From assembly GCA_041393275.1 (NCBI GenBank), contig JAWKKL010000001.1, positions 65,927 to 129,926 on the forward strand: a stretch of 64,000 nucleotides of DNA. The letters are read 5' to 3'. Of the stretch, positions 12,450 to 57,411 are shown piece after piece (within the stretch, counting starts at the first letter, position 1; each line of letters starts with the position of its first letter). Origin of the DNA: Bacteroidales bacterium (GTDB lineage: Bacteria > Bacteroidota > Bacteroidia > Bacteroidales > JAADJA01). The notes beneath the pieces are model-generated. The model was not told the DNA's origin and did no database searches. It saw only the letters and a list, made by a program, of their open reading frames with translations. The translations under genes and the position numbers were made by a program.

Positions 12450-12542
12450 CTTGATCACCAGATTAAAACTCCCGATTCACTGGTTGGAACCGAAGATGAA
12501 TATGATCCATATTACAGGTTTGAAGGATATCAGATTTTTGAG

Positions 12543-14945
12543 TTGTCCGATGCATCTGTTACTATTTCAGATAGTCGTGATGATCCGGATAAAGTTCGGA
12601 TGATTGCTCAATATGATATTAGAAATGGAGTTGGGCAACTTTTTAATTATACGTTTAACCAGGCACTGGGTGCAAACGTGCCTGTAGAAATGGCAATTGA
12701 TGCTGACAATGGGGTGGTTCACTCCTTTACAGTTACGCAAACAGCATTTCCAATGTCAAACGATAGTCGTCTTGTAAATAATAAGCAATATTATTTTAGT
12801 ATTCTGGCATATGGTTATAACAATTACAAGGAATATGATCAAAATGATCCAACAAAACTTAATGGGCAGAAAAAGCCATACCTCGCCGGACGGAAAAACA
12901 TTAAAAACTATACTGCCATTCCGCACAAGACAGTCAATGGTATGGTAATGAACAGCAACTATGGCGATGGTCCGTCTATTTCCCGCATTGAAGGTAACGG
13001 AAATGGTGGTGTTGCTCTTGAGTTTACTGAAGAATCAATTGAATTATTGTTAAGTAAACCCCCGGCAGGAATAACAGAAAGTGGTGATACTATTGCCTAT
13101 GGGGATGATGATTATCCGTTAATTTATAATCCAGTTTATAAAAATGGAAAAGGGCCGGTTTACATCAAAGTTATCGATCCGTTAAACGTAAAGGAAGCCA
13201 GTTATTTATTAAAATTCGATACAGTATTTTACAGGGTTGTTTATGATAATATTACCAATACTGACGGCATGGTGCCAGGAGGTGATACATTGAGTATTAC
13301 AGCAACACCGGGTTGGCAGATTATTGATCAGGAAACACAGCATGTATATGAAGCGGATACCAGTACGAATATAGAATATGAGCAGTTGTTCCCCGATTTA
13401 GGAATTTCCATAACATTTGGCCCTATTGTTCAAGCAGGGCCATATACGGTGGGTAAAATGGCGGATGCAGAAAACACAGCGGTAAATGCAGTACCTGCGC
13501 CAAATAATGGGTTAATTGAAGCCACAATTTCTTTTTCCGACAGTTCCCAAAGATGGCTTAGTGGTATTGCCGACCAGGATATTATTGGATTTCCAATGAA
13601 CTGGATCCGTTCAGGGACGTATGATGATGACTGGGCAAGTTCAAATGATCCTTGGGATCCGGACGAAGTTTATGAAAAAATGATTGGTGGTACGTGGGCT
13701 CCTTACGCCTTATGTGCTTATAATGGACAGGATTCATACGGTGCTGCCCCTGCATTTGGCGAGGCAGCAGGTACATCAAAATCCCTATCCAACAAAATGA
13801 AAAACGTATATAGTGTGGAGGTCGTTTTCACACCAGATAAATCTAAATGGACCCGCTCGCCCGTTATCGAAATGTGCAACGATCCTTTATTGTCTGTTGG
13901 TGGAGCATCGAAATTTGCATTGCGGCGTTCTGCATCACTCGATAAAAATGGAAATCCCTCAGGTTGGCCGGCCGATAAATCAAAATCGTTTAGTAAGGAT
14001 GATCCGAACTATATTGCGCCTTATGGTATGAGTTGGTTCCCGGGATATGCTGTAAATCTGGAAACAGGAGAGCGCTTAAACATAATTTTTGGAGAAGATT
14101 CTAATTTACCTACGGAAAATGGAAGGGACATGTTATTTAACCCGACATCCTCAGATTTACGCAGACGTGATGATAATAATCAGATTATTACTGACCCGTT
14201 AACTCCATTGTTTGGTGGAAAACATTATGTTTATGTAATGGGAAGTGGTGAGTATGTGCGTTCTTCTGGTGCAGATACCCTGCGGTTTAAATTTAGTGCC
14301 TATGATGCAGGGAGAGGCCTTCAAATGGCATTGGATACACTTCCCCCAAAAGGAGATTCATTTTACCAAATTTATGGGAGCCTTATTTATGCAAGCACGC
14401 AATATGTAAATATTCCATTAGCTGTAGATGATGTTCCATGGCTGGCAAATGAAGTGAAAGTTAGGATTAGCCTTGTTAGGCCCTACAATAGATATTATGC
14501 CAATAGTCCATTACCTTCATCAGCAGGAGAAGGACTGAATAAACATTACCCATTGTATGAGTTTTCGACAAAAGGGATTGCTACAACTGAATATAGCGCC
14601 GATAAAGCCGAAACAGATCTTGATTTGGTTGCTGTTGTTCCTAATCCGTATTATGCTTTTGCTGTGGCCAATGGTTATGAATCTGTTCCGCTTGAAAATC
14701 TGGTAAAAATTATAAACCTGCCGGAAAAAGCAACAGTAACAATTTACAACGTAAACGGAACCCGAATCAGGCAATTAACAAAAGACGATCCGGTAACATT
14801 CCTCGACTGGGATCTTAAAAATCATGCGGGAATTCCTATAGCTGGTGGTGTGTACTTATTTCATGTGAAAGATGAAATCAAAAATAGTGAACGGATTGTT
14901 AAATGGTTTGGGGCACTTAGGGTAGAAGATTTCAATGAATTCTAA
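12543..14945 (+). CDS. C-terminal part of the same large secreted protein, ending in a T9SS/FlgD-Ig-like C-terminal sorting domain
   Basis: It is in the same frame as 10530-12449 and is open from 12450 (LDHQIKTPDSLVGTEDEYDPYYRFEGYQIF...). The tail is VVPNPYYAFA...ATVTIYNVNGTRIRQL...WDLKNHAGIPIAGGVYLFHVK. Confidence 0.65.
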   Translation: MSDASVTISDSRDDPDKVRMIAQYDIRNGVGQLFNYTFNQALGANVPVEMAIDADNGVVHSFTVTQTAFPMSNDSRLVNNKQYYFSILAYGYNNYKEYDQNDPTKLNGQKKPYLAGRKNIKNYTAIPHKTVNGMVMNSNYGDGPSISRIEGNGNGGVALEFTEESIELLLSKPPAGITESGDTIAYGDDDYPLIYNPVYKNGKGPVYIKVIDPLNVKEASYLLKFDTVFYRVVYDNITNTDGMVPGGDTLSITATPGWQIIDQETQHVYEADTSTNIEYEQLFPDLGISITFGPIVQAGPYTVGKMADAENTAVNAVPAPNNGLIEATISFSDSSQRWLSGIADQDIIGFPMNWIRSGTYDDDWASSNDPWDPDEVYEKMIGGTWAPYALCAYNGQDSYGAAPAFGEAAGTSKSLSNKMKNVYSVEVVFTPDKSKWTRSPVIEMCNDPLLSVGGASKFALRRSASLDKNGNPSGWPADKSKSFSKDDPNYIAPYGMSWFPGYAVNLETGERLNIIFGEDSNLPTENGRDMLFNPTSSDLRRRDDNNQIITDPLTPLFGGKHYVYVMGSGEYVRSSGADTLRFKFSAYDAGRGLQMALDTLPPKGDSFYQIYGSLIYASTQYVNIPLAVDDVPWLANEVKVRISLVRPYNRYYANSPLPSSAGEGLNKHYPLYEFSTKGIATTEYSADKAETDLDLVAVVPNPYYAFAVANGYESVPLENLVKIINLPEKATVTIYNVNGTRIRQLTKDDPVTFLDWDLKNHAGIPIAGGVYLFHVKDEIKNSERIVKWFGALRVEDFNEF

Positions 14946-42550: not shown

Positions 42551-45397
42551 TTATGTTTTCAACAGCTCAAACAAAGCTTGCTTTGCAAAATTTTCGATCT
42601 TGGGATTTTTATTATTTGTAAAATTAGCAACAAGTGGAATATACTTTTTATCTTTAATTTGAGCAATCAAATAAAGGGTCGCTAAATTTATTTTTACATC
42701 ATGACCGGAAAGCAACATCGAAAGACACTGAAATTCATCCGGTATTTTCAGGTTCAGGTTTTTAATGGCCTCCTCCGAAAGTGTATCCAGCAGTGCTGTT
42801 TCAACAATGGGAACCAACACCCTCTTTAAATTGGTCTCTAACAGGTTGTCTAAAAACTCTACAGCATTTATGCGCATTTCCGGCTTTTTACTTTGTATTC
42901 CCTGGTAAATATTTAAAATATCATCAAAGGGATATTTTAATCCCAACAATCTAAAAATCCGTTCCAGGTTTCCATCCAGCCGACGTTCCAACAGTACGAT
43001 CAAACTTTTTCGAGCCTCAAGTTCTTTTTCGTTTTGCTCCACACCGAAGTTTTTTTCCTCTATATCCTTTACTGTGGATTGGGTATAAAGTGCGGTTAAT
43101 GTTTCAAGATACAAATGGGCTTCATCCAAAATCCGCCTGATCACATCCTTTTGATGGAAGCGAAGATTAGGGTGGTTAATTTTCAATGTATTCAACGAAC
43201 GGAGAGCTTCCATGCGAAGGCCGATATCAGGATGATCGAGCAAAGAAAATAACAGTTCGACCGATTGCTGTGTCCCAATTTGTTCTAAAATGGAAGGAAC
43301 ATGATGCAATAGTTCAATGCCCCATAAATCTTTTTGGATGATTTCAGCAAAATTTTCAACAATGGCCGGACCATAATTTACAAGCGCCATTTTAGCCGAT
43401 GTCCTGAATTCTTCCTGGATAAGAAAATCAGATAAACAATCGATGAATTCAGGACTTAAGGTATTTCCAGCTGATATGATAGCCTGATTTACGATGTCCG
43501 GGTCTTCATCCTTCATGAAGTTTTTGATCTCAATATAAAAAATAGCGATATTAGCTTGTGCAATCGCTTTTAGAATAATCTTTTTTCTGAATTTGATTTC
43601 CTCAGGATCTTTTAACCCAGCCAGGCTATTTATCCTTTTTTCGATGAGTTTTTCAAGGTCAAATTTATTCCTGAGATCAGGATTATTCCGTGATTCAAGG
43701 GCGAGGCTTACAAGGGCAGCACCCCGCACCCTGTAATCTTTATCATGAAGATATTTTGTCAAAAATTCTACCCGGTTTTCGGGAACATGAGCAATGAGGT
43801 ATTCAAAAGCCGCTGATTTTACTTGTTGATTCGGGTCATTGATCAAAAGTAAGACGCTATCTACACTATGTTGATTTCTGAAAAAATACAAACATTGTAG
43901 TGCTTCCGCACGGATGTCAGCCGATGCATGGTCAAGCAATTTGCTCACATCATCAAATAATCTGTCATCAGGGAATTCTTTTATTTTGCGCAGGATGTAT
44001 ATAATTTGAGTCTCAGTTCCCTTCTGCAATACTTTCCGCAGTCCGCTCAGGACAGATTCTTTTGATAAATCCAGCGAGCCTTTTTTCTCATGGTTTCCTT
44101 TTGTTTGTTCAATTTTTAATTTAAACGACCGCACATACTCAAACCGGATTTTTCGTGAAAAATATATCCAAACAAAGAAAAGGGCAAGAATTATAAGGCT
44201 GATAAAGCGGGTGGAAAGATCAAGCCCGTTCACCACAAAAATAAGGATTATCCCGCTAATTCCTGTGGCCGCGCTATCAATAAAAACATCAATAAAACTT
44301 TTTGTTTGGTTTTTAATCTCAAGGGGTATCGGAAGGGCCATAAGCTCAATGGCTGATTTATTTACCGATTGTTTCAGGCTCCCATCTATAAGTTTTAAAA
44401 TAATAACAGCCCAAAGTTCAGGAAAAATCAAAACGAGAAATGCCCCTAGCATGATGCCGAATGGAAGAAAAAAAAGCGATGTGCCTACGCCAAATACACC
44501 TACAATCCTTCGTGTTATAAAAAGCTGAATGATAAGTGAAATGAGGTTAAAGGTCGAAAACCAAAACCCAAAGAAGGCGGTCAAATCATCGGAGTTGGGA
44601 ATTTTTAATGAAGCGATGGCACTGAACTGATAGTCGACAAGCTTTGCGACGATGACACTGATCCCAATTATGGTCGCCAGGTAAGTCAGGTGTTTCGATT
44701 TTCTGATGAGGGCGATGGGGTTAGAATCAAATCCCTTAATCCGTTTTTTGCGTTGAAATTTTGTTTGCGTTGGTAAAACCTCTTTTTTCCATATGGTTTG
44801 TGTAATCGGAATACAAAATGAAAGTAAGATTGCCGCCACAAAAGGGAGGGTTTCGCTACCGATTTGTTCGGCAATGAGCGATGTAAGGTAACCCCCGAAT
44901 ATGCCTCCTGCAATTGCCCCGGCTCCAATAAATCCGAAAAGACGTTTGGCTTCCCTGGCATTAAAAACAATGTTTGCAAGTACCCAAAATTGAGAAGCTG
45001 ATAGTACCGCAAAAATGGCCACCCATATATAAAACAGGTATAAAACCCAGCCCTCAAGGAAATTAAGCCGTAACAATACCCCAAAAACAAAAAGACTCGT
45101 AACAGACCACAGCATGGTTCGTGTAATGATGATGTTAAGGGGCATACGTGATAATAACCTGGAATATAACAATGAAACCAAACCAGCAAAAACAGCAACA
45201 AGTAAAAAAGCATTGGGCAGGTTTTCGGCTCCCATTTTGGCAAGGAACAATCCGTTGACAGCGGGTTTGACTATGAGAAGTGTGGAAATGATCAGGAAGA
45301 TGTTCAATTGCATCAATACTGCACGGCGGTACTCTCCCTCCCGAATATCAAATACATTCCTGAGCAAATGCTCTGCATATTTTTTGATGGTCTCCAT
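42551..45397 (-). CDS. TLC/AAA-family nucleotide (ATP/ADP) translocase-like membrane domain fused to a ~500-aa HEAT-repeat domain
   Basis: 948 aa. FWVLANIVFNAREAKRLFGFIGAGAIAGGIFGG matches the TLC hallmark (FW..AN....EAKR.Y). There are about 11-12 TM helices. C-terminal repeats include LLDHASADIRAEAL, LHDKDYRVRGAAL and LLDHPDIGLRMEAL. Confidence 0.65.
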   Translation of the reverse strand: METIKKYAEHLLRNVFDIREGEYRRAVLMQLNIFLIISTLLIVKPAVNGLFLAKMGAENLPNAFLLVAVFAGLVSLLYSRLLSRMPLNIIITRTMLWSVTSLFVFGVLLRLNFLEGWVLYLFYIWVAIFAVLSASQFWVLANIVFNAREAKRLFGFIGAGAIAGGIFGGYLTSLIAEQIGSETLPFVAAILLSFCIPITQTIWKKEVLPTQTKFQRKKRIKGFDSNPIALIRKSKHLTYLATIIGISVIVAKLVDYQFSAIASLKIPNSDDLTAFFGFWFSTFNLISLIIQLFITRRIVGVFGVGTSLFFLPFGIMLGAFLVLIFPELWAVIILKLIDGSLKQSVNKSAIELMALPIPLEIKNQTKSFIDVFIDSAATGISGIILIFVVNGLDLSTRFISLIILALFFVWIYFSRKIRFEYVRSFKLKIEQTKGNHEKKGSLDLSKESVLSGLRKVLQKGTETQIIYILRKIKEFPDDRLFDDVSKLLDHASADIRAEALQCLYFFRNQHSVDSVLLLINDPNQQVKSAAFEYLIAHVPENRVEFLTKYLHDKDYRVRGAALVSLALESRNNPDLRNKFDLEKLIEKRINSLAGLKDPEEIKFRKKIILKAIAQANIAIFYIEIKNFMKDEDPDIVNQAIISAGNTLSPEFIDCLSDFLIQEEFRTSAKMALVNYGPAIVENFAEIIQKDLWGIELLHHVPSILEQIGTQQSVELLFSLLDHPDIGLRMEALRSLNTLKINHPNLRFHQKDVIRRILDEAHLYLETLTALYTQSTVKDIEEKNFGVEQNEKELEARKSLIVLLERRLDGNLERIFRLLGLKYPFDDILNIYQGIQSKKPEMRINAVEFLDNLLETNLKRVLVPIVETALLDTLSEEAIKNLNLKIPDEFQCLSMLLSGHDVKINLATLYLIAQIKDKKYIPLVANFTNNKNPKIENFAKQALFELLKT

Positions 45398-45468: not shown

Positions 45469-46386
45469 TTAATTCTTCAGCACCAGTTCGATTTTGGTGA
45501 CCAGTTCGCGGCATATTTTTTCACCCTCCGCATCTTCGATGAGCGTAACCAGGATATACCTTCTTCCGTCAGGTCCCCAAACAAGAACCGAATCCGTATG
45601 AAAATTTTGCCAGGTTCCCGATTTCCTGAATATTTTTGCCCTTGGGGCCACCTTGTCAAGTGTATTTACAAATTTATGATGCAGCTCTGGATCAACCATC
45701 ATATCAAGCATGATTTTCGACCGTTCAGGACTTACCAGTTTTCCGTAGGCAAGCATATAATAATACCTGCAAACCTGCGAAACAGTGGCTGCATGGCTAA
45801 GCCCTTTCATTGGCTCCGGATACCGTTCGCCATATTTGGCATAACGTTTTCCTACCCATAAACCACCGCCATAATCTTCGTCGTACAGGTCATATTTTGG
45901 GTCGGTTAAAACACTTTCAATCTTTTCGTATCCTAACCTGTCAATCATTCGGGTAGAGGCTGCATTATCAGATTTGCTGATCATTAATCGTAAATCATTT
46001 CTTATTTCATCGGATTCTTCCATTTCTCCTTTTTCAATGGCATCTTCAGCGGCCAATAAAACGGCAATTTTTGGCAGGCTGGCAGCATACATCATTACAT
46101 TCCCATTTACTCTTGCATATTTTACATTTTCAGGATCGCGCAAGTCCACAAGGCCCACCGCCATTTTTTTTTGTTCAATCAATCGTTTCCACTTTTTATT
46201 TTTATTTAATTCAGTAATTAACTTTTCCTGAAAGGGTAAATCAACAAGATTCCTGAGGGGTTTGATATCGGAAATAGCGAGTGGAAGTGTATCAAAATTT
46301 GGTTTGATCTCATCACTTTTTTGTGTACAGCCTGTAGTTCCAAAAAGAATTAGCAAAACAATGGAAATCAGTAATTTGTTTTTCAT
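45469..46386 (-). CDS. Lipoprotein with a class-A beta-lactamase fold (serine hydrolase, function unknown)
   Basis: Lipobox LFGTTGC. SLPK (SxxK), SKSDN (SDN) and KSGT (KTG-like). It lies upstream of, and probably in one operon with, the TLC::HEAT gene. Confidence 0.65.
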   Translation of the reverse strand: MKNKLLISIVLLILFGTTGCTQKSDEIKPNFDTLPLAISDIKPLRNLVDLPFQEKLITELNKNKKWKRLIEQKKMAVGLVDLRDPENVKYARVNGNVMMYAASLPKIAVLLAAEDAIEKGEMEESDEIRNDLRLMISKSDNAASTRMIDRLGYEKIESVLTDPKYDLYDEDYGGGLWVGKRYAKYGERYPEPMKGLSHAATVSQVCRYYYMLAYGKLVSPERSKIMLDMMVDPELHHKFVNTLDKVAPRAKIFRKSGTWQNFHTDSVLVWGPDGRRYILVTLIEDAEGEKICRELVTKIELVLKN

Positions 46387-46666
46387 GTGAGTTTTTTAAA
46401 AAATGTGCGCAAAAATCGTTAAAAAACGGATTCCCGTTACATTTTAGTCTAATTATTGAATAATATTTTACAAAAAAGAATCATGGTTTCAAAAAATGAT
46501 CACCCAATAAAATATATTTAACAATGTGCATGTAATAGGCTAATTTTGAGAAGCGAGGAGTTTGATTTTATCCTGAATTTTAATTTGAATAATACAGGCT
46601 CAGCTTTTTTACCCTTAAATTTTATTAACTTTAGCAACCCTAAATTTTACATTTAAACAATAACGA

Positions 46667-47728
46667 ATGAATCTACTTGATGGTGTTAAATCAGCTGAAA
46701 TCAGAATAACAAAAGAAGTACAAGCCCTGAGTGATTTGGTGAAGGATACCACCCTGTCTGTAGTTGACCGGATTGAATCCTTTGAAGATATCATGAATAT
46801 GGAAATCGGTGATACGTCTTTACACAGGGCCCGCAACCTTGAAAGAGAATTAAATATCCGCCAGTTGTATATAAAATATGAAGGTGAAAATCCTTCAGGC
46901 ACGCAAAAGGACAGAATTGCCTTTGCTCAGGTTCACGATGCTTTCCGCAGAAATTATGAAATTATATCCCTGGCCACATGCGGAAACTACGGCGTAGCCG
47001 TTGCTTATGCCGCTCATCTGGCCGGATTGAAGTGCAAAATATTTATTCCTGAATCGTATCATACAGAGCGCATAAAAGAGATGGAACATTTTAATGCGGA
47101 AATCATTCGGCTGTCCGGTTCGTATGAAGACATAGTTACTGAATCAAGCCGGCTTGCTTACGCCAATGAATGGTACGATGCAAATCCGGGGGGGGCAAAT
47201 ACACCACTGCAAATTTCAGCCTATGCCGAAATTGCCAATGAAATTTATGACCAGTTGCGCGATGCCCCAAAATATATTGCAGCACCGGTTTCAAACGGAA
47301 CCTTACTGGCTGGCGTTTATCGTGGGTTTGTGAGCCTTTATAAACGAGGAAAAACATCAAGGATACCAAAATTTATTGCGGGTTCGGCTGCTTTTAAAAA
47401 TCCTATCATTACATCTTTTAAAGCAGGTCTTGAGGAATGTAAAGATATTGACCCAAAACAAATAAAAGAAACAGCCATTAACGAACCATTGATCAATTGG
47501 CATAGCTTTGATGGCGATGAGGCCCTTTACGCCATCCGACAATCAGATGGGGAAGCACACCACATTAGCGATAAGAAAATGCGTGAAATGAGTTCTTTTT
47601 TATTAAAAAAAGAAGGCTACAGAATATTACCGGCTTCCACTTCAGGCTTAATTGCCCTGCTTGAAATGCATGAAAAAAAAGAAATGATAAATGACAGATA
47701 TGTGGCTATATTAACAGGAAGAAGATAA
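46667..47728 (+). CDS. Fold-type II PLP-dependent enzyme (threonine synthase / cysteine synthase-like)
   Basis: 353 aa. The PLP-lysine context is YEGENPSGTQKDRIAF. The glycine-rich loop is APVSNGTLLAG. Confidence 0.7.
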   Translation: MNLLDGVKSAEIRITKEVQALSDLVKDTTLSVVDRIESFEDIMNMEIGDTSLHRARNLERELNIRQLYIKYEGENPSGTQKDRIAFAQVHDAFRRNYEIISLATCGNYGVAVAYAAHLAGLKCKIFIPESYHTERIKEMEHFNAEIIRLSGSYEDIVTESSRLAYANEWYDANPGGANTPLQISAYAEIANEIYDQLRDAPKYIAAPVSNGTLLAGVYRGFVSLYKRGKTSRIPKFIAGSAAFKNPIITSFKAGLEECKDIDPKQIKETAINEPLINWHSFDGDEALYAIRQSDGEAHHISDKKMREMSSFLLKKEGYRILPASTSGLIALLEMHEKKEMINDRYVAILTGRR

Positions 47729-47730
47729 AC

Positions 47731-48804
47731 ATGGAAACAAAAAAAATAACAACAGTATATTGCGAGGGGGCATACAACACAACCAATGGCAAAACCGCGC
47801 ATGGATTAGTTCGCTTAACAGAAAGATATGATATCCAGTCGGTAATAGATTCCCGTTATGCAGGCCAGGATGCGGGCATGGCACTGGATGGAAAAAATAA
47901 TGGTATTCCCATTGTTGGCTCTTTAGAAGAAGCGATGAAAGTGAATGACAACAAAAAACCATCCCATTTTGTTGTGGGCCTGGCCCCCGATGGCGGGAGA
48001 TTGGATAAGGCCGCAAGGCAGGATGTAAAAGCTGCCATCAAATTGGGCTTAAGCGTTGATTCGGGTTTACACGATTACCTGACCGATGACCCGGAAGTTA
48101 TGAAATTGGCCACTGAGGCTAATGTTCATATACATGATATTAGAAAACCTGCGGCAGTTAAAGACCTCCACTTTTTTACAGGAAATATAGAAAAAGTTAA
48201 AGCTTTAAAAATAGCCGTTTTAGGAACTGATTCAGCCGTTGGTAAAAGAACCACTGCATGGCGGGTTGTATTCGGCTTCAGGGAGGCCGGTTACAAGGCT
48301 GAGTTGATTGGTACCGGCCAGACAGCCTGGCTTCAGGGAGCCAAATATAGCATGGTGATGGACTCAGTGGTCAATGATTTTGTTTCAGGCGAAATTGAAC
48401 ATGCCGTTTATTCATGCTGGGAAAATGAAAAACCCGACGTGATTGTGCTGGAAGGTCAGGGAAGTTTGATGAACCCGGCCTATCCCGGAGGATTTGAATT
48501 ATTAGCCGCCGGCCGGCCAGATATAGTAATCCTTCAACATGCCCCGGCAAGGCTTGAATACGATGGATTTCCCGGTTACCCACTACATCCCATTGATCAC
48601 CAGATCCGTGCTATTGAAGTCCTCTCGGGGAAAAAAGTAGTAGCCATTACGGTAAATCACGAAGACTTAAGAGCTGACCAGATTGATGAAGTCTGCCGGA
48701 GAATTGAAGCTGAAACCGGCCTCCCGACGACTGATGTCTTAGTTCATGGTCAGGAAAAACTTATAAAAGCATTACTCCCTTATTTAAAAATAAAACAGCA
48801 TTAG
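47731..48804 (+). CDS. DUF1611-family protein (DgcN-like)
   Basis: 357 aa. KIAVLGTDSAVGKRTTA and VLEGQGSLMNPAYPG are typical of DUF1611. It starts 2 nt after the PLP gene. Confidence 0.6.
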   Translation: METKKITTVYCEGAYNTTNGKTAHGLVRLTERYDIQSVIDSRYAGQDAGMALDGKNNGIPIVGSLEEAMKVNDNKKPSHFVVGLAPDGGRLDKAARQDVKAAIKLGLSVDSGLHDYLTDDPEVMKLATEANVHIHDIRKPAAVKDLHFFTGNIEKVKALKIAVLGTDSAVGKRTTAWRVVFGFREAGYKAELIGTGQTAWLQGAKYSMVMDSVVNDFVSGEIEHAVYSCWENEKPDVIVLEGQGSLMNPAYPGGFELLAAGRPDIVILQHAPARLEYDGFPGYPLHPIDHQIRAIEVLSGKKVVAITVNHEDLRADQIDEVCRRIEAETGLPTTDVLVHGQEKLIKALLPYLKIKQH

Positions 48805-48808
48805 AAGT

Positions 48809-51157
48809 ATGAAAGAAATTGAATCCGATTATAACAGCGATTCGCTGGCCGTTCTTGAGGTCATTGATGAGTTGGTCGTCGGGCCGGTAGAACTTTTGCC
48901 AAATAAGCTCTCTATGCCCTATACAGTAGTGATTGGGAGTGAGAGATCAACATATAACCTTGAGTATAAATATGAAGAGGATGTATTTGAAGCGAATGAT
49001 GGCGGGCATCAGAACCTGGCTTCGCTGGTGGGGGCACAAGTGGCCCTCAATTATGGCCTGTTTTGCAAAAAAATTCGGTTTATTGGCTTATTTGATAATA
49101 CGGATAAACGCTTCATTGCTGATATGATGGAGAATACATCACGTGAGATCTATGTCGTGAAACTTCTGCACCCGAACCCTTTTCTTATAGGCGATGCCTT
49201 GAATCTACCCCTTATTAAGCAAAAAAAATATACCCGTGCACAATTAGAGTTTGAAGGAACTGGCTCAATAAATAAAGTGAAATGGCAGTTTTGGGAAACG
49301 GACAAGATCAAACATTGTATTTTATCCAGCGGAGGAAAAGATAGTTTACTGAGCTATGGCCTGATCAATGAAATTGGAAAAGAAACCCATCCTATTTTTG
49401 TTAATGAATCTGGTAGACATTGGTTTACAGCGCTAAACAGCTTTAGGCATTTTAAACAAAACGTGCCCAACACAGCCCGGGTATGGACCAACAGCGACCG
49501 TTTGTTCAACTGGATGTTAAGGCATTTGTCTTTCATTCGGAAGGATTTTAATACCATCCGTGCTGATGACTACCCCATTCGTCTCTGGACTGTTGCTGTT
49601 TTTTTATTTGGTGTTTTACCCATAATGAAAAAAAGGGGAATCAGTCGTTTACTGATCGGCGATGAATATGATTCTTCCCAAAAGAGAAGTTTCAACGGAA
49701 TTACACATTATTCCGGCTACTACGATCAAAGCAAATATTTTGATGAAGCCATGAGCCGGTTTTATTTTAAAAAAGGGTGGGCCGTAAGCCAGTTTTCAAT
49801 TTTGCGCCCAATTTCCGAATTGCTGATTCAAAAAATACTAACCAAACGCTATCCCGAAATCCAGCAACACCAGGTATCATGTCATGCAAGCCATCAAAAG
49901 GAAGAGCGGATTTATCCGTGTGGTAAATGCGAAAAATGCCGACGCATCGTAGGCATTTTAAAAGCGGTGGATGAAGATGCCACGCGCTGCGGTTTTTCAA
50001 AGGAACAGATAGAATATTGCCTGAAAGAATTAGAAAATAAAAATGTAAAACAAATCGGTGAAGACGCCCGGCAGCTTTATTTTATGCTCAATCAAAAAGG
50101 GCTTATCAAAAAGGAAGGTGTTTTAAAGGGTAATCCTGAAACTTTAATGCTCCGTTTCGATAATGAGCGTTCACCGATCAACGCCATACCCACGGACTTG
50201 CGTAAGAAAATTTACAACATTTTCCTTGCTTACTCCGATGGAGCGGTAATTAAAAAAGGAAGCAATTGGGAAGATTTTGATGTGTTGAATGATCCTGTAA
50301 CAGAAATTTATTATCCTTTTGAACATGATCCGGCTGTGGCTGAAAAGTTTGCTACCGAAGGTATTCAGGAAATTCAGTCGAAATATTTATGGGCTGAACT
50401 AACCTGGCCCGAAGCCGAGGAAAAATTAAGCACTGTTGATGTAGCTATTTTACCGGTTGGTGCCATTGAACAACATGGCCCCCACTTACCACTGGATGTT
50501 GATTCGTTTGACGCAGACTATTTAGCCCGGCGTGTAGCCGAAGCTTGCAGCGATCCAAAACCGCTGGTTTTGCCTCTTATACCTTATGGCGTATCCTATC
50601 ATCACAATGACTTTAAGGGTACGATCAGCATATCAAATGATGCACTAGCAAAGCTGGTATATGAAGTGGGTCTCAGTCTTGCCCGGAATGGCATTAAAAA
50701 GCTGCTTATCATCAATGGACATGGCGACAATAAACCGACCTTGCAATATGCTGCTCAAATGATTAACCAGGATGCGAGGATTTTTACTTGTGTGGATACG
50801 GGTGAAACCTCTGACTTTGATATTGATAAAATCACTGAAACGATCAATGATGTTCATGCAGGCGAAGTTGAAACAAGCACCAGCCTGGCAACTCGCTCAC
50901 ACCTGGTGAAAATGGATTTGGCCGTTTCCAGCATACCACAGTTTACGACAAGGTATTTGAATTTTTCATCGGTTCGTGGATTACCATGGTATGCATATAC
51001 CAAAAAGTTTTCGGAAACAGGCGTCATGGGCGATCCCACCAAAGCAACAGCAGAAAAGGGGGAAAAAATATGGGAAATGATGATCGCTCACCTCGTGGTT
51101 TTAGTGGAGGATCTTAAAAGACTTTCATTGGAGGAAATATTTCAAAAAGGGTATTAA
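48809..51157 (+). CDS. Fusion protein: unknown N-domain, then a PP-loop ATP-pyrophosphatase-like domain, then a C-terminal creatininase-family metal amidohydrolase
   Basis: 782 aa. PP-loop SGGKDS at nt 49328-49345. Cys cluster YPCGKCEKCRR. Creatininase motifs LPVGAIEQHGPHLPLDVD, IINGHGDN and HAGEVETS (about nt 50380-51154). Confidence 0.65.
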   Translation: MKEIESDYNSDSLAVLEVIDELVVGPVELLPNKLSMPYTVVIGSERSTYNLEYKYEEDVFEANDGGHQNLASLVGAQVALNYGLFCKKIRFIGLFDNTDKRFIADMMENTSREIYVVKLLHPNPFLIGDALNLPLIKQKKYTRAQLEFEGTGSINKVKWQFWETDKIKHCILSSGGKDSLLSYGLINEIGKETHPIFVNESGRHWFTALNSFRHFKQNVPNTARVWTNSDRLFNWMLRHLSFIRKDFNTIRADDYPIRLWTVAVFLFGVLPIMKKRGISRLLIGDEYDSSQKRSFNGITHYSGYYDQSKYFDEAMSRFYFKKGWAVSQFSILRPISELLIQKILTKRYPEIQQHQVSCHASHQKEERIYPCGKCEKCRRIVGILKAVDEDATRCGFSKEQIEYCLKELENKNVKQIGEDARQLYFMLNQKGLIKKEGVLKGNPETLMLRFDNERSPINAIPTDLRKKIYNIFLAYSDGAVIKKGSNWEDFDVLNDPVTEIYYPFEHDPAVAEKFATEGIQEIQSKYLWAELTWPEAEEKLSTVDVAILPVGAIEQHGPHLPLDVDSFDADYLARRVAEACSDPKPLVLPLIPYGVSYHHNDFKGTISISNDALAKLVYEVGLSLARNGIKKLLIINGHGDNKPTLQYAAQMINQDARIFTCVDTGETSDFDIDKITETINDVHAGEVETSTSLATRSHLVKMDLAVSSIPQFTTRYLNFSSVRGLPWYAYTKKFSETGVMGDPTKATAEKGEKIWEMMIAHLVVLVEDLKRLSLEEIFQKGY

Positions 51158-51158
51158 T

Positions 51159-52220
51159 ATGAAAATTACAGGGATTGAATTTTGGGAAGTCAGGATGAAA
51201 CTGGCGGTGCCTTACACCATCGCTTACGAAACGTTTGACTCGGCCGTAAATGTCTTTTTAAGGTTAAAAACAAATTCAGGAATTACCGGTTTTGGTTGCG
51301 GGGCCCCGGCCCCTGAAGTTACGGGGGAAACAGAAAAAGATGTCCTTGAAAAAACAAATCGGGTGGTCGAACCATTTTTAAAAAATACTGATCCTCTTCG
51401 GCTTTCTTTTCTCATCGAAAAACTCAAACCTGAATTAAAAGGCTATCCGGCCACCCAGGCGATGGTTGATGCGGCTCTTTGGGATATCATGGCAAAAAAA
51501 GCAGATATTCCTTTATATAAACTGCTTGGTGGTTTCCGCGACCGCATGAAAACGAGCATCACCATTGGTATCATGCCTGTTTCAGAAACGGTGGTTAATG
51601 CGAACGATTTTATTAGACAGGGATTTAAAGTACTTAAAATAAAAGGAGGAATTGATGTTAATGAAGACATCGAACGCGTCGTTAAAACACGTGAGACTGT
51701 GGGAACCTCCATCGAAATCCGTTTTGATGCCAACCAGGGATATAGCCTGGAGGATACAATCCTGTTTGTGAATGAAACAAAAAAAGTAAAAGTTGAATTG
51801 CTCGAACAACCTACACCTTATGATGAACTTGAAAAAATGGCACAGGTAACCAGCAAAGTTTCAATTCCTATTATGGCAGATGAAAGCCTGCAAAACCTGC
51901 GGGATGTGTTCAACATAGCCAGACGTAACCAGGCCGATATGATCAACATCAAGATCATGAAAGTAGGGGGTATTTATGAAGCCATACACATCAATTCGGT
52001 TGCCCGATCTGCCGGCATCGAAGCAATGGTGGGTTGTATGGATGAATCGGCCCTGGGTATTTCTGCCGGGTTGGCATTTGCTCTCAGCCGACCCAATGTC
52101 CATTATGCCGATCTTGATGGCCACCTCGATTTAATTGGCGATCCGGCCCAAGGAGCTGTCATTTTAAAAGATGGAATTTTATATCCTTCGGCTAAACCGG
52201 GATTGGGAATTGAATTGTAA
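51159..52220 (+). CDS. Enolase-superfamily (MLE subgroup) dipeptide epimerase
   Basis: 353 aa. KIKGG (KxK), metal ligands in FDANQGY / LEQP / MADES, a second Lys in NIKIMKVGG, and a DLD (DxD) motif near the C-terminus. Confidence 0.8.
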   Translation: MKITGIEFWEVRMKLAVPYTIAYETFDSAVNVFLRLKTNSGITGFGCGAPAPEVTGETEKDVLEKTNRVVEPFLKNTDPLRLSFLIEKLKPELKGYPATQAMVDAALWDIMAKKADIPLYKLLGGFRDRMKTSITIGIMPVSETVVNANDFIRQGFKVLKIKGGIDVNEDIERVVKTRETVGTSIEIRFDANQGYSLEDTILFVNETKKVKVELLEQPTPYDELEKMAQVTSKVSIPIMADESLQNLRDVFNIARRNQADMINIKIMKVGGIYEAIHINSVARSAGIEAMVGCMDESALGISAGLAFALSRPNVHYADLDGHLDLIGDPAQGAVILKDGILYPSAKPGLGIEL

Positions 52221-52286: not shown

Positions 52287-53048
52287 TTATTTTGTGCAAA
52301 AGTAGATTTCACCACTTGCTGAAGTCAATCCATTCAGAATAGCTTCTTCTTCACTCACAAATTCACTTACGGTAATGGTATCCACTTTGAATCCTGCTTC
52401 GCGAAGCCTGTCGACATAATCAGGGCCATATCTTCGAACATGATCTTCCTGCCCAAAAGCCCGTAGCCGATCCTGTGGCTTCACAATGGATGGATCTTCG
52501 TAAGTTACTTCACTGGTGATAGGAACCAATAATATTGCCCAGCCGTTATTATTCAATACGCGATAAAATTCCTTCATCGCTTTTCTATCGTCTTGAACAT
52601 GCTCAAGTACATGACTGCAATAAATAACATCGAACGATTGGTCGGGGTATTTAATATCTGTAATATCCATATTTACCATTACCCGGGGGTCAATTATATC
52701 GGCTGTTATATAATCGTCTTTTAGTTTCTCCCTTAACCTTTGTTCAAAACAACGCTCGGGTGCTACATGCAGCATCTTTTTTGGAGAGCCATCGAACAGG
52801 TTTGTGTTCCTTAAGAAATAAAGCCACACAAAACGATGTCGTTCGAGTGAACTGCAATGTACACATTGGGCATCCTTTCGCTGAATAATGCCAAATGAGC
52901 GAAACAGACGTGATGAATTACCACACACCGGACAGATTCTTCCTTCACCTGAATATCGAAATTTCCTCAAATTATCCCGTATGGGTAAAAGGTAGTTTTT
53001 TGCCCAGTCGGGCAAATTTGAAGAATAAGGTATATTGTTCTTTTTCAT
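52287..53048 (-). CDS. Class I SAM-dependent methyltransferase with an N-terminal Cys4 ribbon
   Basis: CPVCGN...CVHCSS, then MLHVAPE...FDVIYCSHVLEHVQD (Methyltransf_11-like). Confidence 0.75.
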   Translation of the reverse strand: MKKNNIPYSSNLPDWAKNYLLPIRDNLRKFRYSGEGRICPVCGNSSRLFRSFGIIQRKDAQCVHCSSLERHRFVWLYFLRNTNLFDGSPKKMLHVAPERCFEQRLREKLKDDYITADIIDPRVMVNMDITDIKYPDQSFDVIYCSHVLEHVQDDRKAMKEFYRVLNNNGWAILLVPITSEVTYEDPSIVKPQDRLRAFGQEDHVRRYGPDYVDRLREAGFKVDTITVSEFVSEEEAILNGLTSASGEIYFCTK

Positions 53049-53541
53049 TTAATTATTTGTTAAAAGGATATAACAGAAACTGTTTAATAGTAAAAAATCA
53101 TGAACTTGCAATAATTTTATAATTAGTAATATTATTTTAAAGTTAAATAATTATAAGCTAGTAGCATCACTTTGATGATTTCCAAATATTACCTGTCCTA
53201 ATTTTAAAAGGGAAGAAAATTATGTAGCAGTATGTGGTAAATTAAGTTGTTTAAGGGGATTGGAAGGAGCGCATTGAGTTATAAAGGTGTATGGTTTAAG
53301 TGCCTGGTAATCTATTGATTGGGTAAGTATTTTTAATTTGGAAACAAATCCTTTTTAAAATTTTATTTGGAATTGACAAAGTGTATAAAACATGTCAAAG
53401 AACTATATTTGATATGAATTAATGTATTGTAAGAATATACGTTCAAAAAAAGTTTGCAAATGTAATATAGTTTTCTTGATTATTCAAAAAAATATTTATT
53501 TAGAAAACATGTATTCTGAATCAATAATATTTTATCATTTT

Positions 53542-54395
53542 TTACTTAAGCCGTTTTTCTGATCGAATGAATTTAATTTTTGGCAAAACGATCCTTACCT
53601 CCCGTTCGTCTTCTTTGTCGTACCACCAAACAATAAAATTTATAGTTGCCCTGACCAATGTGTATCCCATATCTATCCATTTATTTAACGACTCTCTTGA
53701 ATTTTTTGAAAATTTCAACACATACTTTTTATTCTGATTCAAAAGTCCATCACACATTGAGGTCATCAGATTCACGAATAATGGTGCCGGCTTTTTCAAC
53801 ATTTTTAACAAGAAAACTATCGGCAAAAAGACGGGGTACGTTTTGCGTTCTTTTTACAAAACCGGCTTCTTCTAATACTGCAATTGCAGTGGTTATCCTT
53901 GTTTCGAGGTCATGCATTTCGGTATCCCATCCGGAATATTTTGCAATTTCGAGAGCTGATTTTATAATTTTTCCTTTCCGGAATTTACTCAGGTATTTCA
54001 ATCCTCTCCATACCTGGGCGATTTCTTTCAGGTTTAAGCGCGAAATATATAACAGTTTGAAATGTTCACTTATATCATTTTCGTCGTACAATACAGAACA
54101 TTCTGCTTTTATGGATTGGTCTCTTCCTGCTCAGCCGGTCTCCCGGATATAGCTCTCAAGCGAAGCAGAAATATCATAATGGATGATGATTTTTATATCG
54201 TCTTTATCCACTCCCATCCCAAAGGCAGGTGTGGCAACAATAATACTGGCTTTTCCGGTCATGAACTTATGCTGAAAACGTCGAATCTTGATATAGAGTT
54301 ATCCGCAAATACAAGCCCATCAAGAACAGCCCCGATTTTCTCAACCTTGTGGTTTTTTTGTTTATTTCAAGGTCGAAGAAAAGAATCCTGGGCAT
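53542..54395 (-). pseudogene. Remnant of a RecQ-like helicase with a DEDD-exonuclease-type N-terminus. It is internally deleted, frameshifted and carries a nonsense codon.
   Basis: The minus strand reads MPRILFFDLEINKK/NHKVEKIGAVLDG, then jumps directly to helicase motifs V/VI ([41 protein letters not shown]). A TGA sits where the conserved Arg of GRAGRD is expected. Motifs I-IV are absent. The downstream part changes frame again near 53750-53830. Confidence 0.6.
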
Positions 54396-55033
54396 GTAGT
54401 TATATTTTCATCAAAATTATTGAAAAAATATGTTGGGAGAAAATGAATATATTAATCTGACGAACTTTAATTGAACACTAAACAATACAACTGATAACTT
54501 TTGGGATTAAATCCATTAAGGGGATCATGAATTGTTGATGGAGTTTAAGGAATTATCAATTCTCTCCAGCTATTAAATGCAATATAGGTTGTTTGGCTAA
54601 AATGTTCTTTCCGTAAATAAAGCATAACGAAGTTATAAAACCTTAGTTGGCATCTTTTGTAATTCGTTTACTTCGGAGCCTTTCATATTGTGATGTAAAA
54701 ATGATCGAGTTTTCATAGGGAATTTTTAATAATTGGGATAATAATGAGGAGAATGCCCTTCAAGTTTAAGGTATGAAAAGTTTAATAGTTTTGTGTTTCT
54801 TCAATTGTTTTCGCTTAGTAACTATGCCCTATTCAAAATTACCAATGAGATATTCCAAAATCAATATTCATATGATAGCCTAAATTACTCAGGATTTGTA
54901 TCCGTTCTTTTTTAATTCCTTAAAAATGTTTCGGTAACATTTTTGAATTTGGCATAGGCTTTTTCATCGGAATAAAATTGTTTGACTTGAAGAAAAATTA
55001 AAGCACAGGGTTTTCATAACAGGTAAACTAAAT

Positions 55034-55763
55034 TCATCGTACCCTTGCCTTTTTCAAATCTTTCTGCGACACGATTTTCCATGTTGGCCACGCGTTTGGA
55101 CCATTTTGCTGTACCATTACCAGGTAGTCTCCAAATGGAAGAGGTTTACTTAATTTGTATACTTGCTTATTATTTAATTTGGTATGTTTGATCACAGCAG
55201 GGTCTACTTGTAATAATTTCGCCCAGATAATTTCGTCAGTCGAGGTAAAGGTATTGTTATAACAAACGTCGTAATTCATTCCGCCGTGTTTAACCCAATA
55301 ATGGCCTGAAAATTTGAAACACTTCAAATCAGAAAAAGAACTTGTTGCAGAAGTAAGCACATTTCATTCCATTTCGAATCGATAATTCGATCCAGGCATG
55401 GTAATAAATTGAGAAGGGTCACTACCATTTGAAAATCCTTGTAACCTAAACATTTTTCGGCAATCCATTTAAAATTATAGTTGAAAGAAGCACAAGCACA
55501 TGCGCATTGCTGTTTCCTTTTCACTATCCACCATCTGCTACTATTCTTCCTGCACTTTGAACCCAGGACCAGTGCTGGCGGCCATATTCATAATAGCTTT
55601 TCATCAACTTTAAAAGTGCCTTTTGAACGGTATCGCCAAAAAGTAATCCTGATCCTGGTATAGGCGGAAGCAGCCTTGCGTTTGAAATAATTTCCCAGGC
55701 AGGCTTATTGATAGTTATACCAAGTTTTCCTATTTTTTCTTTAATTGCTGGTTGAATCGACAT
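55034..55763 (-). pseudogene. Hypothetical ~240-codon gene broken into three frames. It may encode a papain-like Cys/His enzyme.
   Basis: ORFs 55524-55763, 55324-55524 and 55034-55360 abut on the same strand. It has a Cys-rich QQCACACASF segment and a later FSGHYWVKHGGMNYDVCYN segment. The family assignment is uncertain. Confidence 0.35.
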
Positions 55764-55963
55764 AATAAATCGGTTTTTTTATGCTGGCCGTTATAGTCAG
55801 CTGTTAGTATTATTTCCCTGTCAGTTTTTAGCTAATAATATTTTCAAGGGGTAGCTAGTCTTAAATCAGTGAATTCGGGTAATATAAACCATCATCAATA
55901 AATGGATAAGCGGTTTATTCGTTAGTTGGGCCTGGTTAGGAAACAATACAAAAAGGTATTTGT

Positions 55964-57411
55964 TCATGTCAGAGATACATTCAGCCGGATTCTGGATCTA
56001 TTTATTTTCGTTCCTTTATTTATTAAATAAAAAGCAAGAATTAATGCCGAAGTGATAAAGGCTGGAATAAATGAAGATTTGGGTTCATATTGTTCGGGAT
56101 ACAGGGTTCCCAGGTAAAAAGACAAGGTTTACAACAAACCCTGCAATGACACTTAAAACAGCCACTCTGTATTTATAGACCTCTTGCGGAACAATGCCAG
56201 AAAAGTAATAGGAACAATATAACAATTGTAGCTAATCCAACCACCAATAGATCCACAATCCTGGGCAGCAATAAAGCCATCCCGAGGGCGATATCTGAAA
56301 AAATTACAGCCGCTGCCCTGATTTCTTTATGAATATGTTGTTTATCGGCTAGCGAATTTTGTTTTTGCCAACCGGCAAAATCACGAATAGCTGAGATTGC
56401 GATCAGGTTCAGATAACTATCTCCTGAGGACATCAATGCCGACATTAAACCAACCACAGAAAATCCAAGAATAAATTCAGTGCTGTGCCGTTCCAGGAAA
56501 AGATATGCGACGTATTTTGGCTCAATGCTTTCGGTAAGTGCAATTTTTATTGCCATGCCAACCAAAGGGAAAATGATATAAAAAGGCAACATACCCAAAC
56601 CGGATATTATACTCACTCGTACAGCTACTTTTTCATTTTTAGCCGCTAGAATTCGTTGCCAGATATCCATCCGAATTAGAACCGATGGCGATAAAAATAA
56701 TGGCAGACCAATTAAGAAAGCCCACCCATAAAATGTTCCGTTCAGGAAGCTGACTGGAAGTTCCGTAAGTTTGCTCAGATTGTTTGTATCAGATACGATT
56801 CCGGGAATAAATATGACAACGATCATGATGGTAAGAAAAATAAATTGTATCAGATCGGTGATGATTACCCCTGATAATCCTGCAAAAGCAGTGTAGGCAA
56901 TAACAATAAGGCATGAGATGATGGCAGCCGTAAGAAATCCGATGTCGAAGGCAAATTTTAACAAGGAAGCCATGGCCACAAATTGTGCTGCCAAAAGGAA
57001 GAAGAAAATAAAGATATTCACCCCGCTAACGACAGATGAAAATAGCCTGGAAAAACCCTGATCATTTGGAGACGTAAACCTGGAATTGAGAAATTGAGGA
57101 AATGAATATATTTTTTCTTTCCTGCCAATCCGGTTCATCTTTGGAGCGAAATACGACAAAATAAGAAATCCGATTACATAGGCAATACCAATGCTCACCG
57201 CTGCAAGACCGGACTCGTAACCCATAGCCATCAATCCAATGGATGTACCACCACCAACAAATGTCGCCAGGGTTGTAGCAACCAATGGAAATGTTTTAGT
57301 TTTCCGGTTATTGACCAGGTAGTTTTCCAGGTCGCCCGTTTTTACATGACGGGTTGTAAAATACAGGATAAGTAGCAGATATAAAACAATCCAGAATATA
57401 AGCCAGGCCAT
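55964..57411 (-). pseudogene. Sodium:solute symporter (SSS) family transporter. The 3' ~200 nt need two frame corrections. The intact ORF is 56173-57411.
   Basis: The N-terminus ...NYLVNNRKTKTFPLVATTLATFVGGGTSIGLMAMGYESGLA is typical of SSS. Hydrophobic C-terminal segments continue in the other two frames (KYRVAVLSVIAGFVVNLVFL, SSFIPAFITSALILAFYLI) down to a TGA at 55964-55966. Confidence 0.7.

Follow-up and report, generated by a model that had tools for sequence, protein, structure and literature searches.

The stretch of DNA analysed here, which we call the window, comprises 64,000 nucleotides of contig JAWKKL010000001.1 from a Bacteroidales bacterium. At positions 46667-52220 it contains four closely packed genes, encoding a pyridoxal phosphate (PLP) enzyme resembling threonine synthase (ThrC), a DUF1611 protein, a fusion of a PP-loop domain with a creatininase domain, and an epimerase of the enolase superfamily. 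This report concerns the conservation of this cassette and the function it may have. All four genes lie on the + strand, separated by 2, 4 and 1 nucleotides, and this spacing and strand layout agree with the first-pass annotation of the window, which had read them as one transcription unit. The features of the locus are the following, with genes and lengths taken from the list of open reading frames (ORFs) and the intergenic region from their layout:

46387-46666: presumed promoter region, divergent intergenic, 280 nucleotides
46667-47728, + strand: gene 1, PLP enzyme, 353 amino acids
47731-48804, + strand: gene 2, DUF1611 protein, 357 amino acids
48809-51157, + strand: gene 3, PP-loop::creatininase fusion, 782 amino acids
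48809-50368, + strand: N-terminal half of gene 3, predicted QueC-fold PP-loop ATP pyrophosphatase domain (about amino acids 1-520)
50369-51157, + strand: C-terminal half of gene 3, linker and creatininase domain (amino acids 529-765)
51159-52220, + strand: gene 4, MLE-subgroup epimerase of the enolase superfamily, 353 amino acids

Profile searches, read at the Pfam gathering thresholds and the NCBIfam equivalog cut-offs, support the family assigned earlier to each of the four genes, and the translations contain all the motifs reported at that stage (GENPSGTQKDR, GTDSAVGKRTT, SGGKDS, CGKCEKC, EQHGPHLP, NGHGDN and HAGEVETS). Close characterised orthologs of each gene from unrelated pathways would have counted against the first-pass proposal; however, all four proteins score below the equivalog cut-offs of characterised enzymes, with the NCBIfam model PRK06381, matched by gene 1, as the sole exception. 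Where we speak below of conservation of at least 97%, we mean residue conservation in alignments of orthologs (69 sequences for genes 1 and 4, 84 for gene 3).

The first-pass annotation had staked its proposal on the four families being kept together outside this genome, and gene-neighbourhood and co-occurrence analysis shows that they are strongly co-conserved. Using tblastn with the four window proteins, we found all four genes in the same order at 68 of 85 loci from more than 15 phyla, the exceptions lying mostly at contig ends. With 68 of the 85 independent loci showing this order, chance is far from sufficient to explain the arrangement. The order is also found between wholly different flanking genes, in Ignavibacteriales, in L003 (a metagenome contig from the Joint Genome Institute, JGI) and in L004/L005 (GCA_964627935.1). 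The fusion protein has more than 2,900 homologs, which are 60-63% identical even in Desulfobacterales, Ignavibacteriales and Melioribacteraceae, and an identical copy (P0001) occurs in a Bacteroidales metagenome-assembled genome (MAG). In a scan of one genome per GTDB species, at least 415 species encode a relative of it. Among the best 80 of these, the carriers belong to Bacteroidota, Ignavibacteria, Desulfobacterota (including the cultured Desulfosarcina variabilis and D. alkanivorans), Zixibacteria, Planctomycetota, Gemmatimonadota, Acidobacteriota/Aminicenantes, Calditrichota, Latescibacterota, KSB1, Krumholzibacteria, Deferribacteres, Clostridia and others. Over 57 loci the pairwise identities of the four proteins are correlated (Spearman r = 0.40-0.67), as would be expected of genes that are passed on together. 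To judge from these sequence comparisons, the four genes make up a single self-contained operon that is inherited, and also transferred, as a whole.

The earlier view of a four-gene unit holds for this locus, but the unit is not minimal, since the set PLP-DUF1611-epimerase is common on its own. Among metagenome contigs probed with the PLP enzyme, counting loci with enough downstream sequence, the variants are distributed as follows:

Three-gene form, PLP-DUF1611-epimerase: about 24 loci, many of them TARA ocean contigs
Four-gene fused form, as in the window: about 17 loci
Five-gene split form, with PP-loop protein and creatininase as separate genes: about 8 loci; Draconibacterium (L086) and SAR324 (L088) examples came from other look-ups
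PLP-DUF1611-PP-loop-epimerase: 1 locus (L142)
PLP-PP-loop-creatininase: 1 locus (L101)

The three-gene form is also present in Cloacimonadota (L087). Some Desulfobacterales have a two-gene form, in which the PLP gene and the fusion gene are followed by a YitT/DUF2179 membrane protein. In the five-gene variants the creatininase domain is a stand-alone gene of 256-267 amino acids, while protein P0125 is a DUF1611::PP-loop fusion encoded in the order PLP, P0125, creatininase, epimerase. Even a PP-loop homolog of 33% identity has a PLP enzyme and a DUF1611 gene in its vicinity. Every variant retains the PLP gene, DUF1611 plus epimerase and PP-loop plus creatininase are two separable modules, and the PP-loop domain is fused to one of its neighbours in some lineages and to the other in others. 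Neighbourhood clustering detected a single recurrent partner, a YitT/DUF2179 (or DUF5698/DUF2179) membrane protein encoded on the same strand directly downstream in about 19 of about 83 loci (including L003, L026, L031, L036, L048, L155, L162 and the two-gene variants); no such gene lies beside the cassette in this window.

Upstream of gene 1, Rfam searches gave no family at gathering score over the whole 64-kb window and no riboswitch or leader match at E<=1 over 46300-46750, and a promoter and terminator scan gave no more promoter-like matches than expected from shuffled sequence. The upstream gap varies among relatives of the cassette and is zero in L004, so that there is no conserved leader or small ORF upstream; a precursor peptide at this place, which we had considered, is ruled out on the same grounds.

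Gene 2 scores above threshold against both DUF1611_N (PF17396, 91.5 bits) and DUF1611 (PF07755, 214.6 bits), which makes it a DUF1611 protein with a Rossmann-like N domain and a P-loop C domain. The P-loop core G165-T174 of GTDSAVGKRTT is at least 97% conserved in its orthologs, V170 excepted, and its PDB relatives are 2g0t (E 2e-42), 2obn and 7xrj. The first-pass annotation had named a pair formed by a DUF1611 protein, DgcN, and an enolase-superfamily racemase, DgcA. This was correct: NCBIfam names an N-acetyltransferase DgcN and an N-acetyl-D-Glu racemase DgcA, and the pathway is cited in PMC12363236. In the passages of PMC12363236 and PMC10845958 that refer to Yu et al. 2023 (ISME J 17:537), DgcN and DgcA form a D-glutamate catabolic pathway. 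The cassette shares with this pathway the pairing of a DUF1611 protein with an MLE-subgroup enolase racemase and the logic of acylating first and racemising afterwards. However, gene 2 obtains only 160 bits with the DgcN model NF041892, for a cut-off of 480 and over residues 78-348 only, and gene 4 obtains 152 bits with the DgcA equivalog, for a cut-off of 400. In view of the first of these scores, gene 2 is a paralog of DgcN and not an ortholog. The cassette further differs in the acidic pocket of its epimerase (Glu24 and Asp295, YkfB numbering for the former), which keeps the DxD motif of dipeptide epimerases, and in its partners, as it always comes with a ThrC-like PLP enzyme and often with the PP-loop and creatininase module. 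The survey in PMC12363236 counts 'dgcN' genes in Bacteroidia and Marinisomatia, and these counts may include DUF1611 genes of the cassette, which lie far below the DgcN cut-off; for these genes the dgcN label is probably wrong.

Gene 4 scores 58.7 bits against MR_MLE_N and 164 bits against MR_MLE_C in Pfam. Its closest PDB relatives are the dipeptide epimerases of E. faecalis (3jva) and M. capsulatus (3rit) and YkfB (1jpm, also 1tkk), with E-values from 2e-65 to 4e-61 for 3jva, 1jpm and 3rit. The expected features are visible in the translation (K160-x-K162, D190/E216/D241, K265 and D318-x-D320, here D318-L-D320); they are at least 97% conserved and align with YkfB residues, so that gene 4 shares with these enzymes the KxK motif, the second lysine, the D/E/D metal ligands and the DxD motif. 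The earlier description of gene 4 as an enzyme of dipeptide-epimerase type therefore stands, but not in the sense of an L-Ala-D/L-Glu epimerase. YkfB Arg24, which we take to bind the Glu side chain, is replaced by Glu in 62 of the 69 orthologs. In addition, D295 is conserved in 69 of 69 orthologs, within a 'GCMDES' motif that among the dipeptide epimerases compared is common only to the M. capsulatus enzyme 3rit, reportedly crystallised with a cationic dipeptide. Glu at the Arg24 position and the conserved Asp295 argue that gene 4 is not an L-Ala-D/L-Glu epimerase and that its substrate is not Glu; the acidic pocket suggests a basic or neutral substrate side chain. None of the dipeptide-epimerase equivalogs is reached, the two L-Ala-D/L-Glu models giving 227.7 bits for a cut-off of 500 and 106.3 for 343.

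In contrast to these two genes, the N-terminal half of gene 3 has no Pfam model above threshold from residue 1 to about 520. Pfam QueC (PF06508) gives 18.2-19.5 bits for a threshold of 22, over residues 299-379 only, and a sequence-profile search against PDB finds the PP-loop stretch alone (E about 0.1-0.3). An AlphaFold model built with 38 homologs has a predicted local distance difference test score (pLDDT) above 85 over most of residues 10-500, and Foldseek matches it to QatC (9y02_B, 464 aligned columns), QueC (2pg3/3bl5) and Cap9 (9nto_B), with E-values from 3e-5 to 4e-4 and probability 1.00. The PP-loop S173-S174-G175-G176-K177-x-S179 and the cysteines C358, C371, C374 and C377 are at least 97% conserved in the 84 sequences; the spacing of these cysteines is presumably much like that of the QueC zinc site. 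Based on the predicted fold, the PP-loop and the four-cysteine cluster, this half can be classed as a QueC-fold PP-loop ATP pyrophosphatase domain. It shares the fold, the SGGxDS PP-loop and the C-terminal cysteine cluster with QueC, Cap9 and QatC, which in general AMPylate a carboxylate that a nitrogen nucleophile then attacks. Unlike them, it falls below the Pfam QueC threshold and has neither deazapurine genes nearby nor a PADLOC match, and it is about 300 residues larger than QueC, with an additional N-terminal subdomain. PP-loop enzymes more generally AMPylate a carboxyl or keto oxygen before attack by nitrogen or sulphur, and in Cap9 and argininosuccinate synthase the nucleophiles are amino-acid amines (PMC13376578).

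The PP-loop family to which this domain belongs has 403 representatives at 50% identity among 1.84 billion proteins. The NCBIfam MurL model (NF041275) matches 10 of 21 of its members, the best match being P0238 (E 7e-10, model positions 130-354 of 447). The window protein obtains only 15-16 bits for a cut-off of 700, so that it is not itself a MurL, and the family appears related to MurL by remote homology. As the profile search against PDB finds only the PP-loop, the classification rests on the predicted fold and on these hidden Markov model (HMM) matches. A search for MurL sequences with the bridging protein P0238 returned only six relatives, none of them named. The earlier 'ATP-dependent adenylating module' is right as to the PP-loop, but this is not a generic module: it belongs to a QueC-fold, MurL-related family. 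MurL inverts the C-terminal Glu of muramyl dipeptide; it consumes ATP with release of AMP, and its proposed action is adenylation of the C-terminal residue at the alpha-carboxylate. Apart from the remote homology and this ATP-to-AMP chemistry, the two differ: the cassette domain scores 16 bits against 700, has the extra N-terminal subdomain, is fused to a hydrolase, and lies among small-molecule enzymes and not beside a Mur ligase.

The C-terminal half of gene 3 matches Pfam Creatininase (PF02633) with 237.9 bits (threshold 31.3) over residues 529-765. Residues E554, H556, D565, H638, D640, H683 and E688 align with E34, H36, D45, H120, E122, H178 and E183 of the Pseudomonas creatininase and, with the exception of D640, are at least 97% conserved. 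The alignment points to a creatininase-family enzyme with counterparts of the two-metal site and of the catalytic histidine. Family membership and all metal and catalytic counterparts are thus shared with creatinine amidohydrolase, MftE, ArfB and IolN. However, all named-subfamily cut-offs are missed (MftE 145.6 bits for 172, creatininase 106.1 for 235, IolN 76.1 for 245, ArfB 25.5 for 180), and the cassette domain is fused to a PP-loop enzyme. The closest named subfamily is MftE, a peptidyl-dipeptidase according to NCBIfam. As a separate observation, the PP-loop is degenerate in four relatives of the fusion protein (P0132, P0151, P0154 and P0210), with for example VLVDGTRESLL instead of ILSSGGKDSLL. 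In addition, P0151 lacks creatininase metal ligands (IQYG for EQHG, NRIPSN for NGHGDN) and lies in a different genomic context, adjoining a CofD-family gene. These four proteins look like catalytically dead paralogs.

Gene 1 scores 183.6 bits against PF00291 (PALP; threshold 35), which places it among the fold-type II PLP enzymes, and the conserved K81 of its GTQKDR motif (an xxKDR context) aligns with the PLP lysine of ThrC, that is, the Schiff-base lysine. It obtains 428 bits with the NCBIfam 'threonine synthase' model PRK06381, above the cut-off of 266, but only 100.5 bits with the curated thrC equivalog TIGR00260, below the cut-off of 167.1. PRK06381 is an old 'threonine synthase' model that appears to describe the same family as gene 1. 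Threonine synthases are also its closest PDB relatives, at E 2e-22 only. The Thermus ThrC residues T88, N154, S155 and R160, which are reported to be the ligands of the O-phosphohomoserine phosphate (Omi et al. 2003), align with Y108, G176, A177 and Q182 of gene 1. G176 and Q182 are at least 97% conserved in the 69 orthologs; Y108 and A177 are outside that list. The term 'ThrC-like' given to gene 1 by the first-pass annotation is appropriate as a family resemblance, but the phosphate-binding residues of ThrC are absent in the alignment. We conclude from these alignments that gene 1 is probably a ThrC-like enzyme acting on another substrate than ThrC. Its predicted structure is poor (pLDDT 67), with a shallow alignment of homologs at least 82% identical.

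What, then, could such a set of enzymes do together? We tentatively favour the idea that the operon, as a relative of the DgcN/DgcA pathway, inverts the alpha-carbon of an amino acid that carries an N-acyl or N-aminoacyl handle, be it from D to L or from L to D; in this scheme the individual reactions, the direction of flux and the substrate are all inferred. The DUF1611 protein would attach the handle to the alpha-amino group, after which the enolase-type epimerase would reversibly invert the N-acyl amino acid or dipeptide so formed at its C-terminal residue. The PP-loop domain would spend ATP, releasing AMP and pyrophosphate, on adenylating a carboxylate in intermediates of this class. It would thereby either make the inversion one-directional, as proposed for MurL, or form or re-form the amide bond by which the handle is attached. 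Removal of the handle would fall to the fused two-metal hydrolase of creatininase type, and the free amino acid would be produced or consumed by the ThrC-like PLP enzyme. The proposal of a stereo-inversion on an acyl or dipeptide handle derives from the nearest relatives of the non-PLP parts and from the domain fusions in both directions. For all these parts, the nearest characterised relatives work on N-acylated amino acids or peptides, at the C-terminal residue or adjoining it: D-Glu is N-acylated by DgcN, DgcA racemises N-acetyl-Glu, dipeptide epimerases invert the C-terminal residue, MurL adenylates and inverts it, and MftE cleaves beside it. The minimal three-gene form, a DgcN/DgcA-like pair plus a PLP enzyme, also supports the scheme, as do the intact catalytic sites of the epimerase, the PP-loop with its four cysteines, the creatininase metal site and the PLP lysine. 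A similar three-step logic of acylation, racemisation and hydrolysis exists in the N-succinylamino-acid racemase route of Geobacillus, which reportedly (Sakai et al. 2006) combines a GNAT acyltransferase, an enolase-type racemase and an L-specific M20 hydrolase into an irreversible inversion. That route has no PLP or PP-loop partner, however, and the N-succinylamino-acid racemase 2p88 has E-L-T where the cassette epimerase keeps DxD.

Several points weigh against this scheme. A reversible enolase epimerase and a MurL-like domain look redundant if both merely epimerise, and the homology to MurL is remote, with 16 bits for the window protein and an E-value of 7e-10 for a divergent member only. 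The conserved DxD motif argues for a substrate with a free N-terminal amine, that is, a dipeptide and not an N-acetyl amino acid, which is a poor fit with an acetyl-CoA-dependent transferase of the DgcN type; gene 2 is in any case far under the DgcN cut-off (160 against 480 bits). The two-gene variants have neither DUF1611 nor epimerase, which implies that inversion there would be left to the PP-loop domain on its own or to genes that are not linked to the cassette. Lastly, the downstream YitT/DUF2179 protein would suit product export and substrate import equally well.

The foremost alternative, which we consider unlikely but still a serious contender, is that the operon builds a small product for export, such as an osmolyte, a signal or a modified dipeptide. 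The PLP enzyme would produce a non-protein amino acid by beta- or gamma-replacement, DUF1611 and/or the PP-loop domain would ligate it into a dipeptide or amide, the epimerase would set a D-centre, and the creatininase domain would trim or cyclise the product. Enzymes of the ThrC/CysK type typically build unusual amino acids, and gene 1 lacks the ThrC phosphate site; the PLP gene is moreover first in order and always present. Formation of amide bonds to amines is known from QueC-fold enzymes, Cap9 for example, and a YitT/DUF2179 gene follows the cassette in about 19 loci, two-gene variants included. However, the cassette occurs in more than 15 phyla, with 54-63% identity between them, and lacks other biosynthetic genes nearby, unlike typical natural-product clusters. 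Its carriers are mostly detritus-degrading heterotrophs of sediments and marine waters, which fits salvage, and the DUF1611 and enolase relatives of known role are catabolic.

A more daring idea, which we hold to be improbable, is that the PP-loop::creatininase fusion is a new kind of ATP-driven stereo-inversion machine working through a five-membered ring. The MurL/QueC-like domain would adenylate the alpha-carboxylate of an N-acyl amino acid or dipeptide, the intermediate would close to an oxazolone- or imidazolone-type five-membered ring in which the alpha-proton is labile, and the fused creatininase-type hydrolase would open the ring stereoselectively. Racemisation of azlactones is the classical case of such a labile alpha-proton, and the archetype of the creatininase family hydrolyses creatinine, itself a five-membered imidazolone. 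If true, this would provide anaerobic sediment and marine bacteria with a widespread D-to-L (or reverse) route needing no oxidase or dehydrogenase.

Could the operon instead serve to recycle cell-wall peptides, with a YcjG/YkfB-like L-Ala-D/L-Glu epimerase surrounded by helpers of murein-peptide breakdown? An L-Ala-D/L-Glu epimerase model is indeed the top NCBIfam name for gene 4, the YkfB structure 1jpm is among its PDB relatives, and a beta-lactamase-fold lipoprotein lies upstream in Bacteroidota. Yet the pocket of gene 4, with Glu for YkfB Arg24 in most orthologs and its conserved Asp295, and equivalog scores far too low for either model speak against such a substrate, and the cassette neighbourhoods have no LD-carboxypeptidase, MpaA or NlpC/P60 partner. 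We regard this explanation as very improbable. Still less credible is a plain threonine synthase whose neighbours are unrelated housekeeping genes, adjacent by chance. The score with PRK06381 and the name 'threonine synthase' given by JGI to close homologs would support it, but NCBI calls these homologs only 'pyridoxal-phosphate dependent enzyme', TIGR00260 is missed, and the ThrC phosphate-ligand positions are occupied by other residues, two of them highly conserved. Moreover, DUF1611 is linked to the PLP gene in practically every locus with room for it, which chance adjacency does not explain. The 'threonine synthase' label for gene 1 in this cassette is probably wrong. A peptide-maturation or anti-phage system, combining an MftE-like peptidase with a QatC/Cap9-like terminus-modifying enzyme, might be suggested by MftE as the nearest NCBIfam model of the creatininase domain and by QatC and Cap9 among the nearest folds of the PP-loop half, but is equally implausible given the absence of a conserved small ORF or leader upstream (the gap being zero in L004), the absence of radical-SAM (S-adenosylmethionine), QatA/B/D or cyclic-oligonucleotide-based antiphage signalling system (CBASS; CD-NTase) partners in the neighbourhoods examined, the absence of any PADLOC match for the four proteins, and partner genes that are small-molecule enzymes.

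The genes flanking the operon in the window are the following, the first two identified with Pfam and the third from the ORF list:

42551-45397, - strand: TLC-type transporter-like membrane protein with HEAT repeats, 948 amino acids
45469-46386, - strand: beta-lactamase-2-family lipoprotein, 305 amino acids
52287-53048, - strand: convergent gene downstream of the operon

A homologous transporter-like/lipoprotein pair lies divergently beside three-gene variants in distant marine Bacteroidota contigs (L106-L109, L111 and L117), whose PLP enzyme is only 67-69% identical to gene 1. The pair is absent beside the cassettes of other phyla in the neighbourhoods examined. It may reflect lineage synteny or a functional link, and is restricted to this lineage. 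Sigma-54 regulators and GroEL recur kilobases away from the cassette within Desulfobacterales, which looks like lineage synteny. A small GNAT acetyltransferase is found near creatininase-less variants of the cassette or distant PP-loop homologs (L087, L089 and L090), and a gamma-glutamyltranspeptidase lies about 1.5 kb downstream (11920-13611) in L054, a Deferribacteres MAG locus without an epimerase after the fusion gene. In the window, the convergent gene at 52287-53048 encodes a class I SAM methyltransferase with an N-terminal zinc-ribbon-like CxxC...CxxC motif, and is not conserved beside the cassette elsewhere. It is followed at 53050-56170 by about 3 kb of low G+C content (about 35%) with short overlapping ORFs on both strands and no ORF of at least 200 amino acids; this segment may be non-coding or may hold the remains of decayed genes. 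Over the whole 64-kb window, ARAGORN detected neither tRNA nor tmRNA genes.

The combination of four genes had not been recognised as a described pathway, and a full-text literature search gave the same answer: it contained no description of the cassette, of the PP-loop::creatininase fusion or of the PP-loop family, although most subscription papers were outside its coverage and a description may have been missed. The pairing of DUF1611 with an enolase is already known from DgcN/DgcA; what is new is the three undescribed additions and a presumably different substrate. The operon holds a domain family without a Pfam model, whose sole characterised remote relative, MurL, works by a mechanism so far only proposed, together with a new PP-loop::creatininase architecture and a ThrC-like enzyme without the ThrC substrate site, and solving one of these could explain the others. 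The cassette also presents an annotation hazard, as gene 1 is called 'threonine synthase' by some pipelines and DUF1611 proteins like gene 2 may be counted as dgcN.

If the proposed inversion of amino acids is correct, hundreds of species in more than 15 phyla possess, in this single compact operon, a means of dealing with amino-acid chirality that has not been studied so far. Most carriers belong to lineages that degrade detritus in sediments and the sea, for example Bacteroidales, Ignavibacteria, Desulfobacterales, Acidobacteriota, Zixibacteria and Marinimicrobia. Since the D-amino acids of cell-wall debris are a large refractory pool of organic nitrogen, such a route would bear on carbon and nitrogen turnover.

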